Notes: generated by a model from the sequence alone, not told the origin. 64,000 bases of DNA from a virus (IMGVR_UViG_2718218304_000001:32001-96000), one strand, 5' to 3'; shown: positions 1-24,312, numbered from the stretch's first letter. Numbers and translations: made by a program.

Positions 1-123
1 TCCCATGATGGTTTCCTTATTAAGTTGCTTCAGTGAAATCATTTTCACAAATCAGATAAGGCAGAAAACAAATTGTTATCGGGTATAAGAAAATGGCGCG
101 GTTTACGCGCCATTTAAAGAGGA

Positions 124-519
124 TTAAGCGAATACGCTTTCAGGGATTAAGGTGTCGGCAGGAATGCCAGAGGTAATGCGCAGACCGTACTGGCCAATCC
201 AGGTGGTGCTGGTGTTCAGGCTGGAGGCGAATACGGTGTTAACCATATTCATCATGGTTTCAAACACCTCTTCATCAACCTGGCGGAAGTAGCTCTCGAT
301 TTTCAGCAGCAGCGGGTCAGTTGCATCGAGAATGGACTGGTATTGAGTCGCGTACTCGCCGTCGGAGTCATCACCTTTACGCACGATCGTACTGGCCTGG
401 ACTTCGGCACCAGTTTCGGTGTTGTACGTAACAACGGTGATTTTTGCCACATTCTTACCTTCGGCGGTTTCAGAGGCATAGTAAACATCAACTGTCAGTT
501 TTTCGCGTTTAACGGTCAT
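124..519 (-). CDS. hypothetical acidic protein (start refined to internal Met)
   Basis: ORF track 124..585; the upstream part overlaps a promoter-like palindrome, and GGAGAG sits 7 nt before the ATG at 519 (protein starts MTVKREKL). No recognisable domain. Confidence 0.4.
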   Translation of the reverse strand: MTVKREKLTVDVYYASETAEGKNVAKITVVTYNTETGAEVQASTIVRKGDDSDGEYATQYQSILDATDPLLLKIESYFRQVDEEVFETMMNMVNTVFASSLNTSTTWIGQYGLRITSGIPADTLIPESVFA

Positions 520-580
520 TTCACTCTCCGTAGTGTTTTGGTTATTTTTATATTCTATGATAGTAAGTATGTACTTACAA

Positions 581-611
581 TACAAAAAAGCCCCGTAAGG
601 ATGGCGGGGCT
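581..611 (-). terminator. rho-independent terminator (hairpin GCCCCGTAAGGATGGCGGGGC + U-run on minus strand)
   Basis: GC-rich inverted repeat followed by T-run on the minus strand, just downstream of the 646..957 gene. Confidence 0.5.
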
Positions 612-645
612 GTCGTACTGTCGACTAATTACCACTTGCACATTA

Positions 646-957
646 TCAGGCTATTGCCATCACTGATGCTCTCTGAATTTCTTGCTGGGCCACGCGGTTA
701 ACTTCCATCAAAGCCAGTTCGAGCTGATGTTCCGGCCACATTCTTTGAAACGCCATCCAGCCTTTTCCACGCTGGCGACGAACATTCATTACATAACGAG
801 TAAAGGTGTTTTTATCGAAAGACACCGCTGTTTCACGGAACAGACGAATAGAAGTTCCATTGGCAACGATGTCTAGCAAAGTTAATTGAGCAACCAGTGC
901 AGGCTTCTCTTTTCTCTTCTGGTCTTTGTCCAGACCAAGAACCAATGATTTTTTCAT
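646..957 (-). CDS. hypothetical protein
   Basis: ORF track 646..987; start refined to the ATG at 957, which is preceded by GGAG. Motif-1 palindrome lies directly upstream. Confidence 0.35.
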   Translation of the reverse strand: MKKSLVLGLDKDQKRKEKPALVAQLTLLDIVANGTSIRLFRETAVSFDKNTFTRYVMNVRRQRGKGWMAFQRMWPEHQLELALMEVNRVAQQEIQRASVMAIA

Positions 958-1110
958 CACAACTCCGTAAACAACTTGTTTTCTCAATGGCGTAAATAAT
1001 ACCAGTAAGAAAACGGCTACAAAGCATAATGATCAGGTGCATGATCGATATGCAGGTTCCTCCCTGCGGCTATAGAGAAATTAAGCCAGCAATGCTGGCT
1101 TTGGTTGGGA

Positions 1111-1440
1111 TTACGCGAATACTTCAAGAAACTCCTGAACGTCCCAATGCTGGACAAGGTGAAGATAGACCTTAGAAATAACATCATTCTCGCTATCGCA
1201 TGTGAAGTAGTACTTCTGGCTGCGGTTGTATGTGTCCACACAAAATTCGCTCATATCCATAAAGTCAGCATCTTCACCCATGTCGCAAATCATCAAAGCA
1301 GGTGCATCATCACGAGTCATCAGCTCCAGCACCCATCTTGAATTAATCAGAGTGGAAGACCAACCTTCCAGCTCATAGAACTGGTCAAACTCTTTTTGAG
1401 TTAATTTCTTGATTTGGTTGATGTCGATATGTGCAAACAT
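1111..1440 (-). CDS. hypothetical acidic protein
   Basis: ORF track 1111..1461; start refined to the ATG at 1440 with AAGGAT upstream; motif-1 at 1451..1470. Acidic composition, no recognised domain. Confidence 0.35.
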   Translation of the reverse strand: MFAHIDINQIKKLTQKEFDQFYELEGWSSTLINSRWVLELMTRDDAPALMICDMGEDADFMDMSEFCVDTYNRSQKYYFTCDSENDVISKVYLHLVQHWDVQEFLEVFA

Positions 1441-1799
1441 AAAGCAATCCTTAAACAACATGTTTTCTTGATGGTGTTATTATCGCAATAACGCACAGGT
1501 GAAAAAGGATTTTATTCCGGTGAATGTGGTTTTGGCAGTGAGTTTTCAGGTTCAGTACCGAGTACACTTTTTACATTATTCTGATTTAGTGGCCGAAGGT
1601 GGCTGGTGGGCAGAATAATCCTCTCCCCGAAAACCTACTGAAATCGATTGTGACCCGTTGGCTGTCTGGCACAATTACGCTGTAACTGGGCATTCAGAGG
1701 GAATCCAGCGGTAAGTAAGTTCGCCTGCACGTGAGCGCCTCTCTTCTTCCCGCACATTACAGGTGGATAGCCGCAACTCTCCCTCTCGCTATACCGGTA

Positions 1800-1940
1800 C
1801 TCCACCGTTCCTGAACCGGCATCGAGCCTTCTCCCGAAATCCACACAGGCAACTCGACCGTTTCCCTGAAAACCTCCAGCCGTTCCCCGAAGGCAACCCA
1901 GCCGTTTCTGTAGCGGGATGCAACTTTTCCCTGTATGGAC
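1800..1940. repeat. array of ~6 imperfect direct repeats at ~22-bp spacing (core CCGTT(T)CCC(Y)GAAA)
   Basis: Read directly: ccgttcctgaacc, ccttctcccgaaatcc, ccgtttccctgaaaacc, ccgttccccgaaggcaacc, ccgtttctgtagcggg at ~22-bp intervals; a related unit near 1626. Confidence 0.45.
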
Positions 1941-1989
1941 CGAAGGCTGACCGTAGGGGTGTTACGGGGGATAAAATCAGGAGTTGAAT

Positions 1990-2020
1990 AAATACGAAAA
2001 AGGAGGCGACACCCCTCCTT
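1990..2020 (-). terminator. rho-independent terminator on minus strand (AGGAGG-loop-CCTCCT + U-run)
   Basis: Inverted repeat aggaggcgacacccctcct; on the minus strand it is followed by TTTTTCGTATTT. Confidence 0.5.
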
Positions 2021-2039
2021 CCCTCCCCACTTATACATA

Positions 2040-2860
2040 CCTGGCTTCTTCGCTATACATGTTGTGTTTTCTTCGTGTTTTATCTGTCTCAACCTCTCTA
2101 TAGGCGTTAATGCTCACCCCTTCCAGAACGTTCTATACGGCGACTATTTCTGTTGGTGAATTGGGCGTGTTGTTCTCTCTGTCGGTGTAAATGGTTTCGT
2201 TCGTTTTGCGGTGGTTCTTCTGTGGGGTGTTCTCGTCGTTTTGGTGATTGTTCTTCTCCGTCTATGGAGTAATGGCAGGTGGGCGATTCCTTTCGTTATT
2301 GTGTTTGAGTTGTTTGTCTGGAGTGTGTGAAAGGCTTTTGTAGTTATTCGTGTATTGGGTAATGGCGTTTCCCGTGATTGTTATGTTTCGTGTCTTTTGG
2401 GATTGAGAGAAACCTTGCGGTTACAGGCTTCGTTGGGGTTTCAGCGGTTCAGGTGTTTCTTCGCTGTTTGGGTAATGGCGTGTCGTGGGTATCGCGCGTA
2501 TGAATGTTTTCGGATTGCCTGTGAAAGTTAGGTTGGTTGTCCGGTAGCCTGGGAAGAAGAGGTGGGTCTTTTCGGTAGCCTGCCATAAAGAGGTTGGTTG
2601 TTTTGGGGAATGGCATATGTGTTATTTAGTTGTTTTGTTATGCCTGAAAATAAGTTGTTTATATGGTTGTGTAACGCAACGGGAACGATTTTGAGCGTGT
2701 GTTTTTGTTGGTAGTGTGTTGGATCGTCTGTGGTGAAAATTGGACGCTGTGGCGCTGTCTGCTGCGTAGAATTACGGGTATAAGCAGTGATGTGTGAAAA
2801 CGTCAATTTTTTAGACCAAATCGGGTGAAAGCGTTGACGTTTCGTTGATCTGTTATTCAG
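2040..2860 (-). other. ORF-free region with strong strand skew (plus strand G+T rich, minus strand C+A rich) and repeated GGGTAATGGCG-like units
   Basis: No credible ORF; the track ORF 2528..2884 is low-complexity. Bounded by a motif-1 copy at 2861..2890 and the minus-strand terminator at ~2000. Confidence 0.4.
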
Positions 2861-3015
2861 TTGTTTTCTTATTGGTATAAACAACGTTAACCTATTGATA
2901 TTTAAAGGTGTGATTGCAGGTATGGAAGGAGAGTAGTGGCGATCAACGGATTCTTATAGAAAAGAATCAAATTGTGACCGCCATTATCAACTGATTGATT
3001 TGTTTACTTGTGTAG

Positions 3016-3414
3016 TCAGTTCTCGAAATGAATAGGGTCAACGTAATGCCGCTCACCGCTTTTACCATTACACAGCACTGTAACTTTCGCCTTTTCACTC
3101 CAGGCTGAGTATAGAAAGTTCCCATCAGGTTGAACATGGTAACGAGAGAAGTAAACATCGCCGACTGAGGCGTCGAACATGTTCCTATCTTTTTCACTTT
3201 GGGCAAGCGAGATGGATATCACCGAATTCCCATTTGGGGAAACGATTTTAAATTTATTCCCTATATCCATAACAATATTGTAACCAGGTAATTGCTTGTG
3301 TGTTTCCGGATCTATTTTCATGCATCGTGGGTACACGATAGTGTTAGGCTCTTCAACTGGCGTGGCATTAGCAGAAAGCACAAAAAATATTAGTGCCAAT
3401 GGTGCATATTTCAT
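3016..3414 (-). CDS. secreted hypothetical protein (N-terminal signal peptide)
   Basis: ORF track; N-terminus MKYAPLALIFFVLSANA is signal-peptide-like. Confidence 0.4.
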   Translation of the reverse strand: MKYAPLALIFFVLSANATPVEEPNTIVYPRCMKIDPETHKQLPGYNIVMDIGNKFKIVSPNGNSVISISLAQSEKDRNMFDASVGDVYFSRYHVQPDGNFLYSAWSEKAKVTVLCNGKSGERHYVDPIHFEN

Positions 3415-3708
3415 TTATCCCTCACAATTTCCAATTTTCCAGACCATCGTCTATTTCAGCGTCAGGGTGGAATTGTACCGCATCAAATCCTACATCGAGC
3501 ACCTTTCGAATGTTCTTGATGGTTTGCTATGTGACACCGTAATCACGCAGCTTTTCTTCCCTCCCCTGACTCCCCCATACTCCGTTTCTGTACCCAATTG
3601 AGTCCGAGATCGTATGGTGCTCGAAACAGATATTTGGTAGACACTCAGAGTCATGCTGTGTAACGAGGGTAGGGCTACTAACTGTCGTCTTATACAATTT
3701 GGTGAGTT

Positions 3709-3957
3709 TCAGCATTTTACCACCCCGTTCGGAAACAACTCATTCGCCGTAGTTGATATAACCTCCCAATTAACGCCGACATCAGCGTTATGGCATTGTC
3801 TGATTTTTTGCATCACCTGTACGCATTGTTCATCAGTGAGATCTGTCCTTACTTCAGCAATATCTTCTTTGTGCCACATAACCATGAGTAAGGGTTCGTC
3901 TTCTGGATAGTTTTTCAGTTTCTCGATGATTTCTTTTGCTGTTCCAAACATCTTCAT
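3709..3957 (-). CDS. hypothetical acidic protein
   Basis: ORF track; GGAG before the ATG; motif-1 copy immediately upstream (3961..3980). Confidence 0.4.
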   Translation of the reverse strand: MKMFGTAKEIIEKLKNYPEDEPLLMVMWHKEDIAEVRTDLTDEQCVQVMQKIRQCHNADVGVNWEVISTTANELFPNGVVKC

Positions 3958-4059
3958 CTCCTAAACAATTTGTTTTCTTATATGACTTATTATCTCAATC
4001 AACAAAAGGTAGAAAACAAATTGTTTTAGAGTTTGTTAAAGTCAGAAGGGGTTGTGTCT

Positions 4060-4090
4060 ATATGAAAATGCCCAGCGTATTGCTGGGCAT
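4060..4090 (-). terminator. metG terminator hairpin (GCCCAGCGTATTGCTGGGC)
   Basis: Inverted repeat followed by a U-rich tract on the minus strand, directly after the metG stop. Confidence 0.55.
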
Positions 4091-4110
4091 TGTGAAGAAT
4101 GGTTGCTTAA

Positions 4111-6144
4111 TTACTTAACCTGGTGGCCAGGTTTAGCACCGACATCCGGGCTTAACAGGAAGATATCTTTCCCGCCAGGGCCAGCAGCCATCACCATGCC
4201 TTCGGAGATACCGAAGCGCATTTTACGCGGAGCCAGGTTAGCCACCATAATGGTGTGACGACCAATCAGTGCCTGTGGGTCTGGATAAGCAGAACGAATG
4301 CCGGAGAAGACATTGCGTTTTTCACCGCCGAGATCCAGCGTCAGGCGTAGCAGTTTGTCAGAACCTTCTACAAACTCTGCGTTTTCAATCAGCGCCACGC
4401 GCAGGTCAACTTTGGCGAAGTCGTCAAAGGTGATAGTTTCCTGAATCGGGTCGTCAGCCAGTGGGCCAGTTACCGGTGCGGCTGTGGCTTTCACTTCTTC
4501 TTTGGATGCTTCCACCAGTGCTTCAACCTGCTTCATATCGATGCGGTTATACAGTGCCTTGAACGGATTCACTTTATGGCCCAGCAGCGGTTGCTGGATA
4601 CCATCCCAGGTCAGTTCTGTATTCAGGAATGCTTCTGCACGTTCAGTCAGTTTCGGCAGTACCGGCTTCAAGTACGTCATCAGCACGCGGAACAGGTTAA
4701 TGCCCATAGAGCAAATCGCCTGCAGATCGGCATCGCGTCCTTCCTGCTTCGCCACCACCCACGGAGCCTGTTCATCGACATAGCGGTTAGCCAGGTCAGC
4801 CAATGCCATGATTTCACGGATAGCTTTACCAAATTCGCGGCTTTCCCATGCTTCACCAATCACTTCAGCAGCATCAGTGAAGGTTTTATACAGTTGCGGG
4901 TCAGCCAGTTCGCCTGCCAGCACACCGTCAAAACGCTTATTGATAAAGCCCGCGTTACGGGACGCCAGGTTAACCACTTTGTTAACGATATCGGCATTCA
5001 CACGCTGAACGAAATCCTCCAGGTTGAGATCGATATCATCAATACGCGAAGAGAGTTTCGCAGTGTAGTAGTAACGCAGGCTGTCAGCGTCAAAATGATT
5101 CAGCCAGGTGCTGGCTTTAATAAAGGTGCCGCGAGACTTGGACATCTTCGCGCCGTTCACCGTCACATAGCCATGAACAAACAGGTTGGTCGGCTTGCGG
5201 AAGTTGCTGCCTTCCAGCATGGCAGGCCAGAACAGGCTGTGGAAGTAAACAATATCTTTACCGATGAAGTGGTACAGCTCGGCGGTGGAGTCTTTCTTCC
5301 AGTATTCATCGAAGCTGGTGGTATCGCCGCGCTTGTCGCACAGATTCTTGAAGGAACCCATGTAGCCAATCGGCGCGTCCAGCCAGACGTAGAAATATTT
5401 GCCCGGCGCGTTCGGAATTTCAAAACCGAAGTAAGGCGCATCGCGGGATATATCCCACTGTTGCAGGCCGGATTCAAACCATTCCTGCATTTTGTTCGCC
5501 ACCTGCTCCTGCAACGCGCCGCTGCGGGTCCATGCCTGCAACATTTCGCTGAAAGAAGGTAGATCAAAGAAGAAGTGTTCGGAATCACGCATTACCGGGG
5601 TAGCGCCAGAAACCACCGATTTCGGCTCGATCAATTCAGTCGGGCTATATGTTGCGCCGCAGACTTCACAGTTATCGCCGTATTGATCTGGCGCTTTACA
5701 TTTCGGGCAGGTGCCTTTTACAAAACGATCCGGCAGGAACATGCCTTTTTCCGGGTCGTACAACTGAGAGATAGTGCGGTTTTTAATAAAACCGTTCTCT
5801 TTCAGGCGAGTATAGATAAGCTCAGACAACTGACGGTTCTCTTCGCTGTGCGTCGAGTGATAGTTGTCATAGCTGATGTTAAAGCCTGCGAAATCAGTCT
5901 GGTGTTCCTGACTCATTTCGCCAATCATCTGCTCCGGTGTGATACCAAGCTGCTGTGCTTTCAGCATGATCGGCGTACCGTGGGCATCGTCGGCACAGAT
6001 GAAATTAACCTCGTGGCCGCGCATTCGCTGGTAACGAACCCAGACATCAGCCTGGATGTGCTCCAGCATATGGCCGAGGTGGATTGAGCCGTTAGCGTAC
6101 GGCAGCGCGCACGTCACCAGAATTTTCTTCGCGACTTGGGTCAT
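4111..6144 (-). CDS. metG: methionyl-tRNA synthetase
   Basis: Translation starting [29 protein letters not shown] matches E. coli MetG over its full 677 aa as I recall it; the ORF-track start at 6273 is an upstream in-frame extension. Confidence 0.95.
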
Positions 6145-6301
6145 AGTAGGCATTACTTCTTTGTAGTGAAAAGGGGCTTGATAGTAACAAAATGGCCTTA
6201 TGTCTGCCATGTGATAACAGCATTTCTCATAAATGATTAAATGTCGTAGCTGGAGTACACTACAAGGCGACAATTGCGCAAATTAAAATAAAGGAGACGG
6301 G

Positions 6302-7402
6302 ATGAGCGAGTCCAAATCGCCGGATGCCCTGAGAGCAATGGTAGCCGGTACGCTGGCTAATTTTCAGCACCCAACCCTGAAACACAACCTGACTACGCTT
6401 AAAGCGTTACACCATGTTGCGTTGATGGATGACACACTGCATGTCGAACTAATCATGCCTTTCGTGTGGAATAAGCCTTTTGAAGACCTGAAAGAGCAAT
6501 GTAGTGGTGATCTGCTCCGTATCACTGGCGCAAAGGCTATTGACTGGAAGCTGTCGTACAACATTGCCACGCTTAAGCGCGTCAAAAACCAACCAGGCAT
6601 TAATGGCGTTAAGAACATTATCGCCGTCAGCTCAGGCAAGGGCGGCGTGGGTAAATCCTCCACGGCGGTAAACCTGGCACTGGCGTTGGCTGCTGAAGGT
6701 GCGAAAGTTGGTATTTTGGATGCCGATATCTATGGTCCATCAATTCCAACCATGCTGGGCGCGGAAAACCAACGTCCAACCTCACCGGACGGTACTCACA
6801 TGGCACCTATCATGTCTCATGGCCTGGCAACCAACTCTATTGGTTATCTGGTCACCGACGACAATGCAATGGTGTGGCGTGGACCGATGGCCAGCAAGGC
6901 GCTGATGCAGATGTTGCAGGAAACTCTATGGCCTGATCTGGACTATCTCGTTCTCGATATGCCGCCGGGCACTGGTGATATTCAGTTGACGCTGGCGCAG
7001 AACATTCCTGTAACTGGTGCGGTTGTGGTAACTACGCCGCAAGACATCGCGCTGATCGATGCGAAGAAAGGCATTGTGATGTTCGAAAAAGTCGAAGTGC
7101 CGGTACTGGGTATCGTCGAAAACATGAGTGTGCATATTTGCAGTAACTGCGGTCATCACGAGCCAATTTTTGGCACCGGTGGCGCACAGAAACTGGCCGA
7201 GAAATACAACACGCAGTTGTTAGGCCAAATGCCACTTCATATCTCTCTTCGTGAAGATCTGGATAACGGAACACCAACCGTTATTAGTCGTCCAGATAGC
7301 GAATTTACGGCTATTTATCGTGACCTCGCAGATCGCGTTGCCGCCCAAATGTATTGGCAAGGTGAAGTAATACCTGGCGAAATCGCATTCCGCGCAGTGT
7401 GA
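6302..7402 (+). CDS. apbC: Fe-S cluster carrier ATPase ApbC/Mrp
   Basis: Contains GKGGVGKS P-loop and CxxC; near-identical to E. coli Mrp/ApbC from memory. Confidence 0.95.
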   Translation: MSESKSPDALRAMVAGTLANFQHPTLKHNLTTLKALHHVALMDDTLHVELIMPFVWNKPFEDLKEQCSGDLLRITGAKAIDWKLSYNIATLKRVKNQPGINGVKNIIAVSSGKGGVGKSSTAVNLALALAAEGAKVGILDADIYGPSIPTMLGAENQRPTSPDGTHMAPIMSHGLATNSIGYLVTDDNAMVWRGPMASKALMQMLQETLWPDLDYLVLDMPPGTGDIQLTLAQNIPVTGAVVVTTPQDIALIDAKKGIVMFEKVEVPVLGIVENMSVHICSNCGHHEPIFGTGGAQKLAEKYNTQLLGQMPLHISLREDLDNGTPTVISRPDSEFTAIYRDLADRVAAQMYWQGEVIPGEIAFRAV

Positions 7403-7404
7403 TA

Positions 7405-7428
7405 AAAGGCGGTGCATTGCACCGCCTA
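7405..7428. terminator. bidirectional terminator hairpin between convergent apbC and the UmuD-like gene
   Basis: Inverted repeat ggcggtgcattgcaccgcc flanked by A/T runs. Confidence 0.5.
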
Positions 7429-7438
7429 ATCAGTTCTC

Positions 7439-7828
7439 CTACATCACGGGACAATCATCAAACTCGCCACTTCTTGCGTCGTTGATAATGTGAGTGATCA
7501 CACCAAACACGGCATTGCTGCCCGTGCATCCATCGTCATCCTTTGGCAATGCTTCCTTCTTACCGGTTCTTAAATCCTCCAGATGCTGACGTGGGTACTT
7601 CCGGTATCTTTTTACGCGATATTCCCCATCCAGAGCGCATACAAGCAGAGAACCATCAACCGGGGTAAGTGAGGAATCGACCACCAGCAATGCACCCTGT
7701 AATATTCCCTCACGATGATGACTATCAGCTGCCCTCATGAAGTAGGTCGCTGAAGGATGTCTAATTATCTGCTGATCAAGAGAAATACGGCTCTCAGCAT
7801 AATCCGCCGCAGGAGAAGGGAAGCCCAT
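7439..7828 (-). CDS. UmuD'-like S24 peptidase domain protein (lacks UmuD N-terminal arm; no umuC partner)
   Basis: MGFPSPAADYAE...HPSATYF...LLVVDS...DGEYRVKR aligns with UmuD from its Cys24-Gly25 cleavage site onward; Ser (ADSH) and Lys (RVKR) of the catalytic dyad are retained. Confidence 0.6.
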   Translation of the reverse strand: MGFPSPAADYAESRISLDQQIIRHPSATYFMRAADSHHREGILQGALLVVDSSLTPVDGSLLVCALDGEYRVKRYRKYPRQHLEDLRTGKKEALPKDDDGCTGSNAVFGVITHIINDARSGEFDDCPVM

Positions 7829-7926
7829 AGCGTTTTCACCTCAGAGTACTGTTTATCCATACAGTATACATTAAAGATGCTTGAAGTGTGCAATAGCGCG
7901 ATGCTTTGCGCTCGTCTGGTGGCGCG

Positions 7927-8178
7927 TTATTTTTTGGCTATATCTTCTTTCTGATATACCGGATCGTTTCCTTTTGGCAGCAGGAGGCTTAACTGCCGGT
8001 AGTGCCGTAGCCGTTCCATGAAATAGGTGCGCAGGTTCTCAGGTTGCTCACGGGCTACCTGTTCCGCTATGACGGGTATGTTCAATCGCTCTTTGTAGGC
8101 AACCCCCCTGGCAGCCAGGTCAACGTTAACTTTATTCCTTTCTTCCTGGCTTTTGGCTGCTATGTTCCAGTTGCTCAT
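7927..8178 (-). CDS. hypothetical protein
   Basis: ORF track only; no recognisable motifs. Confidence 0.2.
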
Positions 8179-8530
8179 GTTTAAGGCTCACATTTCCAGA
8201 TGGTATTCTGAACACCCGTACCAGGCGCAAGATGAGGGTTAGCGTTCGCGCTATGCAGATATACAGCTTTAGACTTTCCGTATTGCTGACAGGCTTTATC
8301 TGCGTTTTTTGGCAGGCTATCCAAGCCAATACCAGCCATCGAACTGGATGCTAACCTTTTCACCGTCATTGTATTGCACCATCGCACACCCAGACATAGC
8401 TAAAATCGCACCGACAATACCGCTTTTCCAAAAAGCTCTAATTAGGTCATTCGTTACCTAATGTCCGAACTGCTAAAGCATCCAAGTTGCTGTAGAATCA
8501 CATCCAATTACTTAAACCTGAAATAAGTGG

Positions 8531-10093
8531 ATGAAAATGACAAGTATTCAACAACGTGCAGAGCTTCATCGCCAGATCTGGCAAATTGCTAACGATGTCA
8601 GGGGTTCAGTCGATGGATGGGATTTTAAGCAGTACGTTTTGGGCGCGCTTTTTTACCGTTTTATCAGCGAAAATTTTTCCAGTTATATTGAAGCCGGTGA
8701 TGACAGTATCTGTTATGCGAAACTGGATGACAGCGTAATTACTGATGACATTAAAGACGATGCCATCAAAACTAAAGGCTACTTCATCTACCCCAGTCAG
8801 CTTTTCTGCAACGTAGCTGCGAAAGCAAATACTAATGACAGACTGAATGCAGATTTAAACAGCATCTTCGTTGCTATCGAAAGTTCTGCTTACGGTTATC
8901 CTTCAGAAGCTGACATCAAAGGTTTGTTTGCTGATTTCGATACCACCAGTAACCGCCTGGGTAACACCGTTAAAGATAAAAATGCCCGCTTGGCTGCGGT
9001 TCTGAAAGGGGTTGAAGGGCTAAAACTTGGTGACTTCCATGAACATCAGATTGACCTGTTCGGTGACGCCTATGAGTTCCTGATTTCTAACTATGCGGCG
9101 AATGCCGGTAAGTCCGGCGGCGAGTTCTTTACACCGCAGCACGTCTCTAAGCTGATTGCACAACTGGCTATGCACGGGCAGACCCACGTTAACAAAATCT
9201 ACGACCCGGCAGCAGGCTCCGGTTCGCTGTTGTTGCAGGCGAAAAAACAGTTTGATGACCATATCATCGAAGAAGGTTTTTTTGGTCAGGAAATCAACCA
9301 TACGACCTATAACCTGGCGCGTATGAACATGTTTTTGCACAACATCAACTACGACAAGTTTGATATCAAGCTGGGTAATACACTGACTGAGCCGCACTTC
9401 AGAGATGAAAAACCGTTTGATGCCATCGTTTCTAACCCGCCGTATTCGGTGAAATGGATTGGCAGCGATGACCCGACGCTGATTAACGATGAACGTTTTG
9501 CCCCGGCTGGCGTTCTGGCCCCCAAATCCAAAGCTGACTTTGCGTTTGTATTACATGCGCTGAACTATCTTTCGGCCAAAGGTCGCGCTGCGATTGTCTG
9601 CTTCCCAGGCATTTTTTACCGTGGCGGCGCGGAGCAGAAAATCCGTCAGTATCTGGTCGACAATAACTATGTCGAAACCGTGATTTCACTGGCACCGAAT
9701 CTGTTCTTTGGCACCACTATTGCCGTCAATATTCTGGTGCTGTCTAAACATAAAACGGATACCAAAGTTCAGTTTATTGATGCCAGCGAACTGTTCAAAA
9801 AAGAGACTAACAACAACATTCTGACCGATGCTCATATCGAACAGATTATGCAGGTATTTGCCAGCAAGGAAGATGTTGCTCATCTGGCGAAATCTGTTGC
9901 GTTTGAGACTGTTGTCGCGAATGACTATAACCTGTCGGTGAGCAGCTATGTGGAAGCGAAAGATACTCGCGAAATTATCGATATCGCTGAGCTGAATGCT
10001 GAGCTGAAAACCACGGTCAGCAAAATCGACCAGTTGCGTAAAGATATTGATGCGATTGTTGCTGAGATTGAAGGTAGCGAGGTACAGGCATGA
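8531..10093 (+). CDS. hsdM: type I restriction-modification methyltransferase subunit HsdM (type IC, EcoR124I-like)
   Basis: NPPY motif ([10 protein letters not shown]) and AdoMet-binding DPAAGSGS; sequence matches my recollection of EcoR124I HsdM. Confidence 0.9.
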
Positions 10094-11337
10094 GCGAGCT
10101 GAGTTATCTGGAAAAACTGCTGGATGGGGCTGAGGTTGAGTGGGTAGCATTAAATAAATTAGCAACTTTTTTAAAAGGGAAGTCTTTACCTAAAGAAAAA
10201 ATAACTCCAGATGGCAATAGATATTGTATTCATTACGGTGAGCTTTTCACTCATTATGGTCCCATAATTGACAAAGTATGCTCAAAAACAAACCAAGCAA
10301 TCAATGAGTCAATTCTATCTGAAAAAAATGATGTTCTAATGCCAACGTCAGACGTTACACCAAGAGGTTTGGCTACAGCTAGTTGCATTCAAGAAAGTGG
10401 CGTTATTTTAGGCGGCGATATTTTGATTATTAGATGCTCTGGTGTTGATGGTAGATATCTAAGTAATTTCATAATAAATAACAAAAAAAAGATATTGCAA
10501 ATGGTTAAAGGTTCTACTGTTTATCATTTGTATGCTAAAGATATAGGTAAATTACTTATCCCCATCCCTTGCCCCAACAACCCGGAAAAGTCGCTGGCTA
10601 TCCAGTCTGAAATCGTCAGGATTCTGGATAAATTTACTGCACTTACCGCTGAGCTTACCGCTGAGCTTAGCATGCGTAAAAAACAATACAACTACTATCG
10701 CGACCAGTTGTTGAGTTTTAAAGAGGGTGAGGTTGAGTGGAAAGCTTTGGGGGAAATTGGTGAAGTTCGTATGTGTAAACGAATCCTAAAATCACAAACA
10801 TCTTCTGAGGGAGAGATTCCATTTTATAAAATTGGGACATTTGGTAAGGAACCCGATTCCTATATATCTAGAAAACTATTTAATGAATTTAAAGAAAAAT
10901 ATAGTTATCCTAAAGTTGGCGAAGTATTGATTTCTGCCAGTGGGACCATCGGCAGGACTGTTATATTTGATGGTAGGGAATCATATTTCCAGGATAGCAA
11001 TATTGTCTGGATTGAAAATAATGAAAAAATAGTTTTAAATAAATATTTATTCTATTTCTATAAAATAGCAAAATGGGGAATATCTGAAGGTGGAACTATT
11101 AAAAGACTTTATAATGATAACTTAAGAAAACTTATGATACCAGTACCATTTCCTGATTCTCCTGAAAGATCGCTAGTTGAACAACAAAAAATAGTGAAAT
11201 TACTGGATAAATTTGATGCTTTGACCAATTCCATCACCGAAGGTCTTCCGCGTGAAATCGAGTTGCGCCAGAAACAATACGAGTACTATCGTGATTTACT
11301 GTTCAGTTTTCCCAAACCTGAAACTATCAGTAACTAA
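10090..11337 (+). CDS. hsdS: type I R-M specificity subunit HsdS (type IC)
   Basis: ATGA start/stop overlap with hsdM; two AT-rich target-recognition domains around a conserved central region with a TAELTAEL repeat. Confidence 0.85.
10642..10668 (+). repeat. 12-bp tandem repeat x2 (CTTACCGCTGAG) in the hsdS central region, encoding TAEL-TAEL
   Basis: Read directly; this repeat number is known in the EcoR124I/II family to set the spacer length of the recognition site. Confidence 0.8.
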
Positions 11338-11458
11338 TTGACCATTGCTACCGACCGGATCACCTTAACATCCGGTCTATATAGAGACTATTTTTTACAC
11401 GCCGGAAGTCGCCCTTAAAGCCCTTCCGGCCCTTGCCAGACGGCACAAAGGATGCGCT

Positions 11459-14400
11459 ATGACTCATCAGACACACACCATTGCTGAATCCAATAACTTT
11501 ATCGTTCTTGATAAGTACATCAAAGCCGAGCAAACAGGCGACAGCTACCAGAGCGAATCGGACCTGGAACGTGAACTGATTCAGGATCTGCGGAATCAGG
11601 GCTATGAATTTATTTCCGTAAAATCTCAGTCGGCGATGCTGGCCAACGTTCGGGAACAGCTTCAGAACCTCAATGGTGTGGTGTTTAATGACAGCGAATG
11701 GCGGCGTTTCACGGAGCAGTATCTGGATAACCCGAGCGATGGCATCCTGGATAAGACCCGTAAAATCCATATCGACTATATTTGCGACTTTATTTTTGAT
11801 GACGAGCGTCTTGAGAACATCTATTTGATAGATAAAAAGAATCTCATGCGCAACAAGGTGCAGATTATCCAGCAGTTTGAACAGACGGGTTCTCATGCTA
11901 ACCGTTATGACGTCACGATCCTGGTTAATGGCTTACCGCTGGTACAAATCGAACTGAAAAAGCGCGGCGTGGCGATTCGTGAGGCCTTTAACCAGATACA
12001 TCGTTACAGCAAAGAGAGTTTTAACAGCGAAAATTCTCTGTTTAAGTATCTGCAACTGTTTGTCATTTCCAACGGCACCGATACCCGTTACTTTGCCAAC
12101 ACGACAAAGCGCGATAAAAACAGTTTTGACTTCACCATGAATTGGGCGAAATCAGACAACACGCTGATTAAAGACCTCAAAGACTTTACCGCCACCTTTT
12201 TCCAGAAACATACCCTGCTTAATGTCTTAGTGAACTACAGCGTATTCGATGTTAGCCAAACGCTACTGGTGATGCGACCGTACCAGATTGCCGCCACTGA
12301 GCGCATTCTGTGGAAAATTAAGAGTTCCTTTACAGCGAAGAACTGGTCAAAACCGGAAAGCGGTGGGTATATCTGGCACACTACCGGTTCAGGTAAAACC
12401 CTCACCAGCTTTAAAGCCGCGCGTCTGGCAACAGAGCTGGACTTTATTGATAAAGTCTTCTTCGTGGTCGACAGGAAAGACCTCGATTACCAGACCATGA
12501 ATGAATATAAGCGTTTTTCGCCAGACAGCGTCAACGGCTCGGAAAATACCGCAGGTCTTAAACGCAATCTGGATAAGGACGATAACAAAATTATCGTCAC
12601 CACTATTCAGAAACTTAATAACCTGATGAAAGCAGAAAGCGACCTGCCTGTATACAATCAGCAAGTGGTGTTTATATTTGATGAATGTCACCGCAGCCAG
12701 TTTGGAGAAGCGCAGAAAAACCTGAAGAAGAAATTCAAACGCTATTATCAGTTTGGTTTTACCGGCACACCTATTTTCCCGGAAAACGCCTTAGGCTCAG
12801 AAACGACCGCCAGCGTATTTGGTCGTGAATTGCATTCGTATGTAATTACCGATGCGATTCGTGATGAAAAAGTGCTCAAATTCAAGGTGGACTACAACGA
12901 TGTGCGGCCACAGTTTAAATCTTTAGAGACAGAAACCGACGAGAAAAAACTGAGTGCGGCTGAAAATCAGCAGGCATTTCTTCATCCCATGCGTATACAG
13001 GAAATTACGCAATATATTCTGAATAACTTCCGCCAGAAGACCCACCGTACTTTCCCAGGTTCCAAAGGCTTTAATGCCATGCTGGCAGTGAGTAGCGTGG
13101 ATGCCGCGAAAGCCTATTACGCGACGTTTAAACGGTTACAAGAGGAAGCAGCTAATAAATCGGCTACCTATAAACCGCTGCGTGTTGCAACAATCTTCTC
13201 CTTTGCCGCCAATGAAGAACAAAATGCCATTGGTGAAATTTCCGATGAAACTTTTGATACCAGCGCAATGGACAGCAGTGCTAAAGAGTTTCTTGACGCT
13301 GCAATTCGTGAGTATAACAGCTATTTTAAAACTAACTTCAGCACCGACAGTAACGGTTTTCAGAACTACTATCGTGATTTAGCCCAACGGGTTAAAAATC
13401 AGGATATCGATCTGTTAATTGTCGTTGGGATGTTTTTAACCGGCTTCGACGCTCCAACATTGAACACGCTATTCGTCGATAAAAACTTGCGTTTTCACGG
13501 CCTGATGCAGGCATTCTCCCGTACCAACCGCATTTATGACGCTACTAAAACCTTCGGTAACATCGTCACTTTTCGGGATCTGGAACGCTCAACCATTGAT
13601 GCCATAACGCTGTTTGGTGATAAAAATACTAAAAATGTGGTGTTAGAAAAGAGTTATGCTGAGTATATGGAAGGCTTTACAGATGCTGCCACTGGTGAAG
13701 CTAAACGCGGCTTTATGGCAGTAGTTTCAGAACTGGAACAACGGTTCCCTGACCCTGCCAGTATTGAAAGTGAAAAAGAGAAGAAAGACTTCGTAAAACT
13801 GTTTGGTGAATACCTGCGTGCCGAGAACATCCTGCAAAACTATGATGAATTTGCCACGCTGAAAGCCCTGCAACAAATCGATCTTAGCGATCCTGTTGCG
13901 GTAGAAAAATTCAAAGCAGAACATTATGTGGATGATGAAAAGTTCGCTGAATTGCAAACAATTCGTCTCCCTGCTGAACGCAAGATTCAGGATTATCGTT
14001 CTGCCTATAACGATATTCGCGACTGGCAGCGCCGTGAGAAAGAAGCTGAGAAAAAAGAGAAATCAACCACTGACTGGGATGACGTAGTTTTTGAGGTCGA
14101 TTTGCTGAAGTCTCAGGAAATAAACCTGGATTATATCCTTGGACTGATTTTCGAACACAACAGACAAAATAAAGGCAAGGGCGAAATGATCGAAGAGGTC
14201 AAACGCTTAATTCGTTCAAGCCTGGGGAACCGGGCGAAAGAGGGCCTGGTGGTCGATTTTATTCAGCAAACGAACCTGGATGATTTACCAGACAAAGCCA
14301 GTATCATTGAGGCATTCTTTACGTTTGCTCAACGCGAACAGCAACGTGAAGCAGAAGCATTGATAAAAGAAGAAAATCTCAATGAAGAGGCGGCGAAACG

Positions 14401-14575
14401 CTATATTCGCACGTCTTTAAAACGCGAATACGCCACCGAAAATGGCACAGAATTAAACGAGACATTACCAAAACTTAGTCCGTTAAACCCGCAATATAAA
14501 ACGAAAAAACAGACCGTTTTCCAGAAAATCGTCACGTTTATTGAAAAGTTCAAAGGAGTAGGTGGGCAGATATAG
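11459..14575 (+). CDS. hsdR: type I R-M restriction subunit HsdR (helicase-nuclease)
   Basis: 1038 aa; Walker A TGSGKT and DECH box; only a 120-nt gap after hsdS. Confidence 0.9.
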
Positions 14576-14633
14576 TGTATTAATCTGAACCAGATCTGGC
14601 AGACATCTGTGCAAATTGCAGATAGCTGTCAGA

Positions 14634-15110
14634 TCAAACCATCGTAGGGATGTTTGTATCCACTTTGAACTCAGGTACACCAACGAACTCTTTAACCTTC
14701 ATCTGGTAGCCGGTTCTGTCAGTTTTGATGACTTCCTGTTTGCCCTCTATAAACTGCTCACGCCACTCGTCGCGACGGGAAGCTGGCATGATCAGCAAAA
14801 CGTTAGTCATATCCGTGACCTTCCTCCAGTACTCGGCCCAAATATTCTGTTTCACCCATTCCAGATCGACTTTATCCAGCCAAGCTCGATTCAAACGTGA
14901 GCGTTCTTCATCTGGTCGATGGTTCAGTTGCAGCAGGCGATTAATCATGTTGTGGCGTTCGTCGCCATAAACGAAGTCGTGAACCTGATACATGAAGGCG
15001 ATCTCTTTCTCGCACTCGGCTACGATTTCGTGGATGACGTTCATTTCCTGACGATAATCGATAGCAGTGTTTGAGTTGGTATCGTCGATGATGGAAAGAG
15101 CTGTATTCAT
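14634..15110 (-). CDS. hypothetical protein, convergent with hsdR
   Basis: ORF track; normal GC; no recognised domain. Confidence 0.35.
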   Translation of the reverse strand: MNTALSIIDDTNSNTAIDYRQEMNVIHEIVAECEKEIAFMYQVHDFVYGDERHNMINRLLQLNHRPDEERSRLNRAWLDKVDLEWVKQNIWAEYWRKVTDMTNVLLIMPASRRDEWREQFIEGKQEVIKTDRTGYQMKVKEFVGVPEFKVDTNIPTMV

Positions 15111-15213
15111 AATTGCACCATTAAGAAAAGATTTGTTTAATAGTGCAATTATTTCAAAAATGAAAAGGTGCTAAATAGAAATTAACAGGCAATCCTTTAA
15201 ATAAAGGTATTTG

Positions 15214-15828
15214 CTAATCATACTTTGAGGTATTTATAACCAGGATTTTGTTTGTATAAATCTTCTTAATATCCCATGTGACATTACCGGAATACCATTG
15301 ACCGTTATATACTTGGTTTCCAGTTGCACCGGTCATAGTTACATAGACAGGTCTGTCGTAATCGGTTCGTCTATAGTTATAAACCCCAACCATAGCAGGC
15401 ATTACTGCGCACGGATACCCCATATCTATTGTAAATTGTGGGTCAGTAATAGTGATAAGTTTTGCATCAAGGGGCATCATCTCACCGTGATACACCATTG
15501 CGCCTGCGCTGTTATACATGGCAATGCCATAGCCAGAATGTGGTAACACCATATCAGAAAAAGCATAAACTGTTATTGTTCCGGGGCTACCATTTACCTG
15601 ATGCAATCTGAGAGCATTGTATCCGTTACTATGTTCATGAATAAACATCATGTTCGCCTTATTGCTGCTTTTTATGAAGAAAAAGCATGATTTGTTTGAT
15701 GGGATTGATGTTTGAAAAACAGAACCTTTAGATGTAGACATTGTCCCTTTATTAATCAGATTTTGCGGAGTAAATTCAGGACTCATCCACAAACTTCCAT
15801 CTGATTGAGTAATTGACATCCCGAACAT
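15214..15828 (-). CDS. hypothetical Asn/Tyr/Gly/Thr-rich protein (AT-rich gene; start refined)
   Basis: The track start at 15885 is a non-ATG (TTG) codon preceded by an in-frame stop; the ATG at 15828 lies 2 nt after the stop of the upstream ORF. Confidence 0.35.
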   Translation of the reverse strand: MFGMSITQSDGSLWMSPEFTPQNLINKGTMSTSKGSVFQTSIPSNKSCFFFIKSSNKANMMFIHEHSNGYNALRLHQVNGSPGTITVYAFSDMVLPHSGYGIAMYNSAGAMVYHGEMMPLDAKLITITDPQFTIDMGYPCAVMPAMVGVYNYRRTDYDRPVYVTMTGATGNQVYNGQWYSGNVTWDIKKIYTNKILVINTSKYD

Positions 15829-15830
15829 AA

Positions 15831-16112
15831 TTATCCCCAGTATGTGTATATGTAAGAACCAAGCCCCGTATATAAATTTGACCAACTAACCGTATTTCCA
15901 TTAATAGTAACATTTGGAACAGGTAAATTGATGTAGTTGTCGTTGTTAAGAGGCATTAATGACCACACGGCATGTAGTGATTTACCCGGTGGCGGATTAG
16001 AGTACGTCTTAGAGCCTGATGACGCCGTAAATCGATCAAGAAAAAAAATAGGTGTAAGGAAGCCAGTAACGTTAATTCCTTTATTGTTGTAAATCCCTGT
16101 ACCGTATGCCAT
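15831..16112 (-). CDS. hypothetical Asn/Tyr-rich protein (AT-rich gene)
   Basis: ORF track; its stop is 2 nt from the next start, consistent with translational coupling. Confidence 0.35.
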   Translation of the reverse strand: MAYGTGIYNNKGINVTGFLTPIFFLDRFTASSGSKTYSNPPPGKSLHAVWSLMPLNNDNYINLPVPNVTINGNTVSWSNLYTGLGSYIYTYWG

Positions 16113-16166
16113 TTTTCACCCTTGTTTTTATCAACACAATATGGCCGATCATGCGGCCATATCAGA

Positions 16167-16736
16167 TCAATTAGAGCTTTGAAAGACTTTGTGTGGTTGT
16201 GTTGCGAGGTTATGTCGATGGCTTAACTCACGCATCATGTCTTCAAGGCGACTCTTTGTGTCGTCGAGTTGGTCGGCCATTGCTCCCAAAAGCTGACGAA
16301 CGGCCATCGGATCATCGCTGTTTAGTGATGGCATTTTATAACCCGCCTGAGAAGACATAAGATTGAACGCAGACATCAACATCGTTAGAGAGGATTTAAG
16401 CCCAGCAATTTCACGATCTTTGCTGGCAATAATCGCCTCACTCTTGTTAGTGTCATCAGTTCGTTGAGTCTCGCTCACCATATCCAAAGTCGCCTGCAAC
16501 TTATCAGCGCGCTCTTTTTCAGCAAGATAATGAACACCGAAATGATGTGCTAAAGCTACAACCTGAGTTGGCTCTTCAAAGGTGGACTCAAAATTAAGTG
16601 CTGTAACCACTCTCTCAAATATGGAAACGTCTTCTATTCCTCGAAGAATGGCTAACATTTTGACCAGTTCATTAGCATCCATTTCTTCGAATAAGGCGTT
16701 TTGTTCATCAGCTATCGCTTTGCATTTCTTGCACAT
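16167..16736 (-). CDS. hypothetical protein
   Basis: ORF track; motif-1 and AGGAAAAACAC-ATG context upstream. Confidence 0.4.
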   Translation of the reverse strand: MCKKCKAIADEQNALFEEMDANELVKMLAILRGIEDVSIFERVVTALNFESTFEEPTQVVALAHHFGVHYLAEKERADKLQATLDMVSETQRTDDTNKSEAIIASKDREIAGLKSSLTMLMSAFNLMSSQAGYKMPSLNSDDPMAVRQLLGAMADQLDDTKSRLEDMMRELSHRHNLATQPHKVFQSSN

Positions 16737-17033
16737 GTGTTTTTCCTAATGCTTAAACAAGTTGTTTTCTTATTGGCTTTATTGTGATGTGGCATAAAAG
16801 GGGAGCAAGCTAAACGTAAAGGTGCAAACTCTCTATTTCGGTCAACGAAACACAAGGGCCATTTGGCCCTTGTCATTAACACGTTGCTTTACGGACTAGC
16901 GGATAAGCGAAGTAGATCGCCAGACCAATGAGGACGCCATCAGAAATGACAGACATCATCTTTCCCGTAAAATCCACCAACACCGCTATCACCAGAAGAG
17001 CAATGACGGTCACAAGCCGGAATCTCTCAAGCA

Positions 17034-17459
17034 TTAGAGATAAGCATCCAGTGACAACTGAAGCGCCTGGGCGATCTTTTTCAGCGCCTGCTCTTCTGGT
17101 TCATCAATGCCGTCCTGGTCGGCAATATCAAGGCACAGACACAGTACATCTACTGCATCATCAGTCCCGGCCACATCCGCCAGCTCACGTAAAGCCTGGG
17201 CATTAGCACGGCGCGGTGAGGCTTCGTATTGAGCGCGGATATTGGCGCTCATCTGGGCAATCTCACCAGCAAAAGGAGAAAATGCAGGCAGAGCTGCAAT
17301 TGTTTTCTCAAGAATGGAAATTTCTTTTGCATCGCATGTACCGTTGGCATAGGAGATCATGTACCCGCCCCACACGGTGGCTTCAACCGCATCACGGTTC
17401 TCCATTTTTTTGACTTCGATAACAGCTTTACGAGTTTTCTTTTTGAAGAAACCTAACAT
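17034..17459 (-). CDS. TerB-like (tellurite-resistance TerB family) domain protein
   Basis: Acidic helical protein with TerB-like pattern (..DAKEISILEKTIAAL..DVLCLCLDIADQDG..EEQALKKIA); motif-1 upstream. Confidence 0.45.
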   Translation of the reverse strand: MLGFFKKKTRKAVIEVKKMENRDAVEATVWGGYMISYANGTCDAKEISILEKTIAALPAFSPFAGEIAQMSANIRAQYEASPRRANAQALRELADVAGTDDAVDVLCLCLDIADQDGIDEPEEQALKKIAQALQLSLDAYL

Positions 17460-17552
17460 GTGTTTTCCTTTTGCTATTTGTCAAAACAAATTGTTTTCTG
17501 GTTACATAAATTGCTTACGCAAAGACGGTCAATGCATATGCACTAACAACCG

Positions 17553-17741
17553 TCAGAAATAACCAAGTACCGAACCGACTGGAAAAATAAAAATCCCAAC
17601 TACACGAGCCAAGGTCATGCCAGCCTGAAACTGGAGATCACCTGAGCAAACGAGTTTTATAATGTTGGATACCCAACCGGCGGCCATGAGAGCCAGAATT
17701 GCCAGCCAAATTTTCCCAAAGTGATTTGAAAGCCAGTTCAT
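17553..17741 (-). CDS. small membrane protein (2 predicted TM helices)
   Basis: 62-aa hydrophobic ORF with stop/start overlap to the upstream gene. Confidence 0.3.
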   Translation of the reverse strand: MNWLSNHFGKIWLAILALMAAGWVSNIIKLVCSGDLQFQAGMTLARVVGIFIFPVGSVLGYF

Positions 17742-17750
17742 ACAACCACC

Positions 17751-18245
17751 TTAGTCACAACATGATCCTGAGTAACTGGATGAACTTGAGGTATCGCATC
17801 CACCGTCATCCCATCCAGAGTGACAGGACGCTCTACTGGAGTGGTGGTAATTGTCGTCGACGGAGGTGTGGTGATGGATGAACCCGGCATCAAAAGGCTC
17901 TGGCCGGCTGGAACGGCTACCGTCGCCAGTGAAACTATAATGAGAACGTAGGCCATTGGTTTCAGCCTCTTTCTTTGAAAATTTTCCATTCGAACTGTCC
18001 TTGTTGTTTTTCTCCTTCACTAAAGGCCGTGTACTTTTCGCTTCGCGTGAAGAACCAGAGGCAACAATCGCCCCCACGTTCGCAACAACTGACGCTTGAT
18101 TATCTAAACGTTCATTCAGCAACCGAACGGTAGTCTCTAGTTCATCAAGACGTGACATAACACGACCGCTAAACAATTCGGCCAAAATTTGACGTAAAGA
18201 ACGAGGACGTTTAGTTGCAGAAGTGAAATAGGTTTGACGTGCCAT
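17751..18245 (-). CDS. hypothetical protein (C-terminal half low-complexity; overlapping alternative ORF 17738..17989 encodes a signal-peptide protein)
   Basis: Two overlapping frames; the N-terminal ~85 aa look protein-like; cannot be resolved by eye. Confidence 0.25.
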   Translation of the reverse strand: MARQTYFTSATKRPRSLRQILAELFSGRVMSRLDELETTVRLLNERLDNQASVVANVGAIVASGSSREAKSTRPLVKEKNNKDSSNGKFSKKEAETNGLRSHYSFTGDGSRSSRPEPFDAGFIHHHTSVDDNYHHSSRASCHSGWDDGGCDTSSSSSYSGSCCD

Positions 18246-18393
18246 GTGGACTCCATCCAGTGTCAGAAAGAGTTGCGGCTGGCGATCGCCAGCCGCCTTT
18301 CTCGTTCCATCCTGGAACTGTGTCTTACCGACACATTGTCATCCTGACGCTGATAAGATACATGATTTAAAATGATAGGTAAACACTTACTTA

Positions 18394-20581: not shown

Positions 20582-20640
20582 CTTCTTTCTCGATAGGTAA
20601 GTAAATACCTATTTTTGCATTTGATTTTATGTCTGGCAAT

Positions 20641-22290: not shown

Positions 22291-22299
22291 CAGAACTCC

Positions 22300-24311: not shown

Positions 24312-24312
24312 A

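Follow-up and report, generated by a model that had tools for sequence, protein, structure and literature searches.

We analysed a 64,000-nucleotide (nt) stretch of viral DNA (IMGVR_UViG_2718218304_000001, positions 32001-96000), the whole of which is called the window below, in which the two enterobacterial genes metG and apbC lie side by side. The first 7.4 kb of the window contain five small open reading frames (ORFs) on the minus strand and 1.55 kb without a credible ORF, followed by metG and then by apbC. To the right of apbC lie a module of the type found in phage P1 (humD and a gene for a DNA polymerase III theta homologue), the type I restriction-modification genes hsdM, hsdS and hsdR, and a long backbone (Table 1).

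A preliminary description of this DNA, made from the sequence alone, assumed an Escherichia coli chromosome and reported that the DNA on both sides of metG-apbC shares the same regulatory motifs. It offered three explanations: two related islands on either side of the gene pair, a rearrangement that split one element around it, or cargo status of the pair within a larger element. Our results support the last of these. The window is very probably a 64-kb part of an SSU5-like phage-plasmid, that is, of a temperate siphovirus that is also an IncFIB-type plasmid, with metG-apbC as its cargo. We understood the motifs in question as the two dominant dispersed motifs of the window (motif-1 and motif-2, see below), which occur beside the RepA iterons and a conserved ribosome-binding-site context. 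The small minus-strand ORFs had been described as acidic; three of them are (isoelectric point, pI, of 4.3, 4.3 and 4.9), and the other two have pI values of 10.5 and 6.4.

Identity of the element

Judged from its sequence, the element in the window is almost identical to Escherichia phage Cyrano, which is the same as plasmid pLF82 of E. coli LF82. Blocks of 97-98% identity (window positions 1-2990, 3958-7876, 14637-35803 and 37594-58644) are collinear with Cyrano; the aligned part totals about 46 kb (~72% of the window) in the same order, extra short stretches align at 77-85%, and the small left-flank genes, the non-coding locus, metG, apbC and humD are all covered. In a search of a phage collection, positions 1-7880 were found in the Escherichia phages Cyrano, CMS-2020a and PhiR41_1. 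In addition, the dnaE-like gene is 84.7% identical to its counterpart in Salmonella phage SSU5 and occupies the same map position. The SSU5-like group of phage-plasmids has been described (PMC9928086, PMC3999498, PMC7969092), and the relatives of the window are IncFIB-typed, non-mobilizable plasmids of ~95-122 kb. For Cyrano itself, encapsidated DNA was detected in the supernatant of cultures, electron microscopy showed virions attributed to it, and the copy number is ~5.5 per cell (PMC9928086).

The window departs from Cyrano at several places. Positions 7877-14636 are occupied by the type I restriction system, in whose stead Cyrano has Ea22-like genes; the RepA/iteron allele (35804-37593) and the two small genes at 2991-3957 are not those of Cyrano; and the window has a tRNA gene, Tyr, that Cyrano lacks.

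The relation between the two flanks was examined in 5,426 complete E. coli genomes. Positions 1-4110 matched 260 places, all of them on plasmids of ~95-220 kb (51 full-length plasmid matches at 95-98% identity), and matched no chromosome. The preliminary description had raised the case of a left flank belonging to the conserved core chromosome; the opposite is seen. The same plasmids also carry metG-apbC (221 plasmid places, up to 99.8% identity), and more than 200 complete plasmid or phage records have the left and right flanks in one contiguous genome. The left flank and the "element" to the right are one replicon.

Two related genomic islands, inserted independently on either side of a chromosomal metG-apbC pair, would also give both flanks the same motifs, and accessory genes such as the restriction system do adjoin the pair. 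However, we consider this extremely improbable, given the plasmid-only occurrence of the left flank and the contiguity of the two flanks. Furthermore, the K-12 neighbours yehE (of mrp, that is, apbC) and yehF (of metG) are both absent; a synteny comparison with the yeh operon is inapplicable to DNA that is not E. coli chromosome; the homology to the chromosome stops at the two stop codons; apbC is a plasmid-type rather than a chromosomal allele; and the homologue of a tyrosine recombinase lies far off, at ~54.4-55.5 kb.

The second alternative, in which one element was split by a rearrangement around chromosomal metG-apbC, for example by integration of the phage-plasmid into the chromosome through homologous recombination at metG, is very improbable because free plasmids and phage genome records show the same gene order and junctions. 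After such an integration, yehF or yehE would be expected on one side, together with an apbC of the chromosomal type, and neither is seen. Note that the plasmid metG is 94% identical to the host copy over 2 kb, which is enough for RecA-mediated recombination, and that the mosaic divergence of metG and apbC (see below) suggests past exchange with the chromosome.

Several points weigh against an SSU5-like phage-plasmid with metG-apbC as cargo. First, the window, which spans ~34.7-97.3 kb of Cyrano, has no virion genes. The Cyrano record includes terminase, capsid, tail, lysis, RepA and ParA genes and a T4-like set of replication and recombination genes, but the virion, packaging and lysis genes lie at 0.1-28 kb in Cyrano (and in near-identical complete plasmids), the window ends before that region, and parA is likewise outside the span. 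Because the virion genes lie outside the window, its status as a phage rests on near-identity to complete relatives. Second, the window may come from a chromosomally integrated copy of the phage-plasmid; none was found in the 5,426 genomes. Third, we found no empty-site relative that has the two immediate neighbours, the DUF1380 gene and humD, and lacks metG-apbC. Fourth, metG is barely expressed in the one lysogen transcriptome considered, that of LF82 (16 fragments per kilobase per million, fpkm). Finally, the regulators proposed for motif-1 and motif-2 are candidates, and homologues of P1 C1 and Lpa are absent.

Dispersed motifs

Motif-1, AAACAAnTTGTTT, occurs at 11 sites in the window when one mismatch is allowed (0.36 expected; 0 of 100 shuffled sequences reached 11). 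Six of the sites are left of metG (66, 969, 1453, 2648, 3963 and 4014) and five are right of apbC (16755, 17484, 27709, 39147 and 53498). The motif-2 core, GTAAGTAnnTACTTAC, occurs at seven sites with up to two mismatches, against 0.13 expected: a perfect copy on the left (563-578), and six on the right (18379, 20597, 34833, 51337, 57956 and 61401). A longer form, ATARGTAAGTAnnTACYTAT (20 nt), is found at about nine loci, all on the right, against 0.04 expected, and adds sites at 25428, 30145, 38336 and 43936. The observation that the same motifs flank metG-apbC on both sides was therefore correct. A 16-kb control from the K-12 chromosome contained one motif-1 site and no motif-2 site. Within the window, neither motif has a site between 4027 and 16754, and this motif-free accessory stretch of 12.7 kb fits foreign DNA outside the regulatory network of the element.

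In the orientation of the gene, nine of the 11 motif-1 sites share one arrangement: a (TGn)GATAAT-like -10 element, 13-14 nt, AAACAAnTTGTTT, 2-30 nt, a ribosome-binding site and ATG. The motif has a conserved asymmetric extension, AAGA, on its left side, and AGAAAACAA, the commonest 9-mer in the window, is contained in the extended motif. The sites at 66 and 4014 are inverted and overlap the -35 region. Before the homologue of the ORF at 1111-1440, seven relatives all have the block TTATTGCGATAATAAC...AAGAAAAC unchanged, with an identity of 62-73% elsewhere. Cyrano has 18 motif-1 sites over 108 kb, including sites before terS, parA, the helicase gene, the ribonucleotide reductase beta gene and many small genes, and the homologous loci of pHCM2 and of the Klebsiella, Citrobacter and Enterobacter relatives have 6-12 sites each. 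These positions suggest that motif-1 is an operator-like palindrome in the 5' leader of many early or accessory genes, a role that is predicted from its placement.

Alternatively, motif-1 could act in RNA, as the 5'-leader operator of a translational repressor encoded by the element, in the manner of T4 RegA or Salmonella FljA. The candidate is a FljA-family protein: CYRAN_114 of Cyrano matches Pfam PF03614 (phase-1 flagellin repressor) over its full length (E 1e-80), with a weak Hfq-like hit at the C-terminus, and FljA-type proteins stop translation of fliC through the mRNA leader (PMC2652032). In accordance with such a role, motif-1 lies in the predicted 5' leader, 2-30 nt before the ribosome-binding site and in one orientation to the gene, and its AAGA extension is asymmetric. 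However, the distance of motif-1 is fixed with respect to the -10 element (13-14 nt) and variable with respect to the start codon, and the sites at 66 and 4014 are inverted and upstream of promoters, both of which favour a site in DNA. Moreover, the palindrome would form a weak hairpin only, no motif-1-like site was seen by eye in the fliC leader of E. coli K-12, and the FljA-like gene may simply repress host flagellin. We consider an RNA role unlikely. The FljA-family protein is either a repressor of host flagellin or a candidate binder of motif-1 leaders; in the latter case, motif-1 could be the operator set of a genome-wide FljA-family translational repressor. In relatives, the gene corresponding to CYRAN_114 lies ~3.5 kb past the left end of the window.

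Motif-2 is placed differently. It follows a -35 element of the TTGAT(A/G) or TTGTAA type and fills the spacer ahead of the -10 element, so that its centre is ~12-13 nt upstream of the -10 element, near -24. For example, the perfect copy GTAAGTAcaTACTTAC at 563-578 overlaps the last five bases of the -35 element and fills most of the spacer. Cyrano has 14 motif-2 sites over 108 kb, including sites that border the tail, tail-fibre and lysis operons, and the homologous loci of pHCM2 and of the Klebsiella, Citrobacter and Enterobacter relatives have one or two each. Motif-2 appears to be a spacer palindrome of promoters throughout the genome, including those of virion and lysis operons, and it resembles a late-promoter site; this role too is a prediction. 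Candidate binders of the motifs are an XRE-type repressor and the FljA-family protein. The putative XRE gene in the window, a homologue of CYRAN_45, is transcribed in the LF82 lysogen. A palindrome, GGTAAGcaCTTACC (53996-54011), closely follows the -10 element (TAATAT) of this gene; its half-sites are motif-2-like and may indicate autoregulation of the repressor.

The arrangement recalls phage P1: both are plasmid prophages whose many transcription units each carry one of two short dispersed motifs. P1 has dispersed repressor operators and 11 late promoters with an inverted repeat (PMC10695390). The P1 repeat is 9 bp long and lies near -22, where it stands in for a -35 box at these Lpa-dependent promoters; motif-2 is likewise a palindrome in the promoter spacer, with a length of 16-20 bp. 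In the late box AAGTTACTT of the P1 promoter LPhot, the AAGT/ACTT half-site resembles that of motif-2. The C1 operator of P1 is asymmetric and 17 bp long, whereas motif-1 is symmetric. Since no homologue of P1 C1 or Lpa was found in the window or in the whole of Cyrano (tblastn, best E 0.47), we regard the likeness as an analogy, which would concern design rather than membership.

The metG-apbC cargo

Homology to K-12 spans window positions 4110-7398: it begins one base past the metG stop codon and stops no more than 4 nt short of the end of apbC. The chromosome-derived segment gives way to the P1-like one at ~7399-7440. Pfam assigns residues 8-397 of MetG to tRNA-synt_1g and residues 581-674 to tRNA_bind, and ApbC to the ParA/NUBPL family (E 2e-102). 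In comparison with K-12, metG is 94.1% identical at the nucleotide level, with 10 amino-acid changes, a synonymous divergence (dS) of 0.28 and a ratio of non-synonymous to synonymous divergence (dN/dS) of 0.026; apbC is 82% identical, with dS ~1.5 and dN/dS 0.023. Between the window and Cyrano, apbC has 21 synonymous and no non-synonymous differences. Because dN/dS is low and the apbC changes relative to Cyrano are synonymous only, both genes are under strong purifying selection and appear to be kept functional.

The two genes disagree in ancestry. The plasmid metG is only 86-88% identical to that of other genera, and its closeness to K-12 is similar to that of the metG of the sister species Escherichia sp. 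E1V33 (94.35%). In contrast, the plasmid apbC stands at much the same distance (~79-83% identity) from its counterparts in Escherichia, Citrobacter, Salmonella and others; for comparison, the apbC genes of K-12 and E1V33 are 90% identical. Among the copies listed for the E. coli genomes, chromosomal apbC is 82.4-84.9% identical to the plasmid allele and nearly all E. coli records fall in the 80-90% band, while 213 of the 214 records with a plasmid copy (218 places) show at least 95% identity. Identity to K-12 falls sharply in the intergenic region, near 6060-6350. The cargo is a mosaic of an Escherichia-like metG and a deep-branching apbC allele. We infer that the pair was captured long ago from an enterobacterial lineage outside the sampled ones, and that metG was later converted by the copy of an Escherichia host; the conversion, with its breakpoint near 6060-6350, is proposed because metG and apbC disagree in ancestry. 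Among the 80 best metG loci, a capped list with one genome per species, none was a closer chromosomal donor. Two other mobile-element records, the Salmonella plasmid CP075030.1 (301 kb) and a fragment of Salmonella phage S.Kent 1-2-1, contain metG-apbC or metG with partial apbC (~84%), and more than one capture of the pair is possible.

Each of the 5,426 host genomes already has the genes that the cargo duplicates. In the LF82 lysogen, apbC reaches 92 fpkm, 9-fold above background, and is listed as a moron; the value for humD is 148 fpkm. Like phage morons and other auxiliary genes, the cargo is host-derived, is dispensable for the phage cycle, has its own promoter region and is absent from close relatives. 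Unlike typical morons, it consists of a copy of an essential housekeeping aminoacyl-tRNA synthetase and its chromosomal neighbour. As a working guess, it might be kept for an extra dose of methionyl-tRNA synthetase and of the iron-sulfur carrier. We found no discussion of the cargo in the literature on metG in pHCM2, pLF82 or SSU5.

SSU5-type relatives from Salmonella, Klebsiella, Citrobacter and Enterobacter do not have metG-apbC at this position. They have the conserved non-coding locus at the same place and different DNA beyond it: pHCM2 has unrelated small genes, the Klebsiella relative a DUF262 gene and a type I restriction system, and the Citrobacter and Enterobacter relatives other small genes. 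In the E. coli plasmid pNT1N28-108k, where the pair is likewise missing, only two small genes precede the DUF4942 gene. Because relatives carry differing DNA after the non-coding locus, the position of the cargo is regarded as an accessory hotspot, which in the window contains, in this order, two variable small genes, metG-apbC, the P1-type humD-theta module (86-88% identical to P1, P7 and D6) and hsdMSR. Within the restriction system, hsdS (10143-11199) differs from that of the closest plasmid, AH02, and hsdM and hsdR are 98% and 91% identical to it. Relative to the window, AH02 has an IS903B insertion adjoining a deletion (14992-32082).

We propose that a two-gene piece of an enterobacterial chromosome was captured into this hotspot, which lies between the conserved non-coding locus and the DUF4942 gene. 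The captured piece ends at the two stop codons, retains a divergent promoter region of its own and is free of the motifs of the element. The DNA on either side is that of the phage-plasmid, and the element's dispersed promoter signals are found there for this reason.

A conserved non-coding locus

The 1.55 kb between the small ORFs (1462-3015) form a locus that is found in 836 plasmids of Klebsiella, Escherichia, Enterobacter, Salmonella, Citrobacter and Cronobacter. It is unannotated in the AH02 plasmid record, and the curators of Cyrano placed two ORFs there (CYRAN_103 and CYRAN_104). A conserved ORF was considered and rejected: the open stretches of the A/C-rich strand shift in frame and position among relatives, and the alignment contains 1-nt indels. 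Identity to distant relatives is 62-66% over ~1,470 aligned nt, as compared with 31-50% at the fourfold-degenerate sites of the flanking genes in the same comparisons, where synonymous change has reached saturation. Since the locus is more conserved than the fourfold-degenerate sites of its neighbours, it is under purifying selection.

The strand-skewed region of the preliminary description is real. GC skew is +0.29 and AT skew is -0.33 over 2001-3000, and the plus strand of 2040-2880 consists of 39% T, 30% G, 16% A and 15% C. The repeat array reported there was confirmed in part: Tandem Repeats Finder detected no tandem array in 1-7440, and the repeats that are present are dispersed one-strand repeats (CCATTAC and ACCCACCT) and six degenerate direct repeats of ~22 bp. 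A conserved 10-bp hairpin, read on the minus strand, also lies within the locus.

Consensus RNA folding with 7, 16 and 30 relatives gave clear compensatory support for the terminator hairpin only; the A/C-rich part is essentially without shared structure, and the fold of the ~22-bp repeat region is weak (-17.6 kcal/mol over 335 columns). Rfam searches of 1400-3100, at gathering and permissive thresholds, gave only chance-level hits. A role as a sponge for the small RNA GcvB was rejected, with a duplex energy with GcvB region R1 of -28.7 against a mean of -28.3 for shuffled sequences. On large Klebsiella plasmids, 470 bp of the locus occur as a fragment that moves together with the neighbouring DUF262 gene and restriction island; this, too, was set aside as uninformative on function. 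The locus is silent in the LF82 lysogen transcriptome.

We tentatively suggest, as a possibility somewhat short of an even chance, that the locus is functional and represents a previously undescribed non-coding part of SSU5-like phage-plasmids. It may include a motif-1-type promoter and a predicted, unstructured transcript of ~870 nt that ends at the hairpin terminator. The locus could provide a lytic-phase regulatory RNA or leader, a Rho-loading RNA, a lytic replication origin, or a GGA-motif array.

Other features of the window

The remaining features are listed in Table 1. Eight genes share a near-identical initiation context, AAAGGAAAAACACATG, comprising the ribosome-binding site and ATG; none of these genes is in the left flank. 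A cluster of tRNA genes on the minus strand (56550-57203) contains Ser(TGA), Thr(TGT), Tyr(GTA) and Asn(GTT); of these four, the Tyr gene is missing from Cyrano. On the plus strand, 45655-46073 is a full-length match to the cspA thermoregulator of Rfam (186 bits). It accompanies an ORF of the CspA cold-shock family (~45833-46048) between dnaE and hicB, in a stretch that is unannotated in the Cyrano record.

Table 1. Coordinates of genes and other features in the 64-kb window
Feature	Position	Strand	Remarks
Motif-1 site, inverted	66-78	-	Overlaps -35 of a gene with ATG at ~6-4 that runs off the window
Small acidic phage ORF	124-519	-	131 amino acids (aa), pI 4.3, PHROG 2473
Sigma-70-like promoter TTGTAA-17-TAGAAT	552-580	-	Contains motif-2 palindrome
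Small basic phage ORF	646-957	-	103 aa, pI 10.5, PHROG 5125
Motif-1 site	969-981	-	14 nt past extended -10 TGgTATTAT; directly before GGAG and ATG at 957
Small acidic phage ORF	1111-1440	-	109 aa, pI 4.3, PHROG 7645
Motif-1 site	1453-1465	-	13 nt downstream of TGcGATAAT
Conserved 1.55-kb non-coding locus	1462-3015	-	No annotated gene in most records sampled
Chi site, conserved	1602-1609	+	Within locus
Six degenerate direct repeats, ~22 bp	~1813-1932		Within locus
Hairpin terminator and U-run	1997-2026	-	Kept by AU-to-GC and UA-to-GC exchanges
A/C-rich, G-poor stretch, ~840 nt	2040-2880	-	One-strand repeats; internal motif-1 at 2648
Degenerate motif-1 promoter and 46-bp imperfect palindrome	2861-3003	-	Within locus
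Variable ORF	3016-3414	-	132 aa; hydrophobic N-terminus, signal-peptide-like by eye; other genes in Cyrano
DUF1380-family small acidic ORF	3709-3957	-	82 aa, PHROG 10258
Promoter of DUF1380 gene, TGaGATAAT	3963-4026	-	Bracketed by inverted motif-1 pair, 3963-3975 and 4014-4026
Hairpin and U-run, putative metG terminator	4060-4090	-	Read by eye; absent from consensus scan list; plasmid sequence
metG, methionine-tRNA ligase	4111-6144	-	Cargo; 677 aa, intact
Divergent metG/apbC promoter region	6145-6301	.	No motif-1 or motif-2 site; only ~45 nt beside metG K-12-like
apbC (mrp), iron-sulfur cluster carrier ATPase	6302-7402	+	Plasmid-specific allele; 366 aa, intact, divergent from metG
Hairpin GGCGGTGCA/TGCACCGCC	7408-7426	.	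Between convergent apbC and humD
humD, UmuD-like S24 peptidase	7439-7828	-	P1-type module
DNA polymerase III theta homologue	7927-8178	-	P1-type module
Type I restriction-modification system, hsdM, hsdS, hsdR	8531-14636	+	Accessory; other genes in Cyrano
Initiation contexts AAAGGAAAAACACATG	16734, 17457, 27675, 34714, 38647, 43849, 49856, 59988	-	Third dispersed signal
Phage-plasmid backbone, collinear with Cyrano	16755-61416	-	Carries remaining motif-1 and motif-2 sites
Replication region, ~18 iterons GTATGCTGTCAGCGGT	35811-37570	.	Both sides of Cyrano repA position; DNA diverges from Cyrano
Putative XRE/helix-turn-helix repressor, CYRAN_45 homologue	54041-54427	+	Expressed in LF82 lysogen
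Tyrosine recombinase homologue (CYRAN_44, annotated integrase)	~54.4-55.5 kb		By homology

Implications

Public records already include the element with its metG-apbC cargo, the family has been described, and in this sense the finding is ordinary. The practical consequence is that the window is phage-plasmid rather than chromosome, and "island" findings made from it should be reread accordingly. The by-products worth noting are the grammar of the motifs, the mosaic cargo and the conserved non-coding locus.

For the biology of the family, the two dispersed promoter palindromes offer a handle on the lysis-lysogeny circuitry of the element, and hundreds of plasmids in the family share the conserved 1.55-kb non-coding locus. 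A widespread lineage of E. coli phage-plasmids stably maintains an additional copy of an essential tRNA synthetase gene together with apbC, and the 2 kb of metG homology could mediate recombination with the chromosome.

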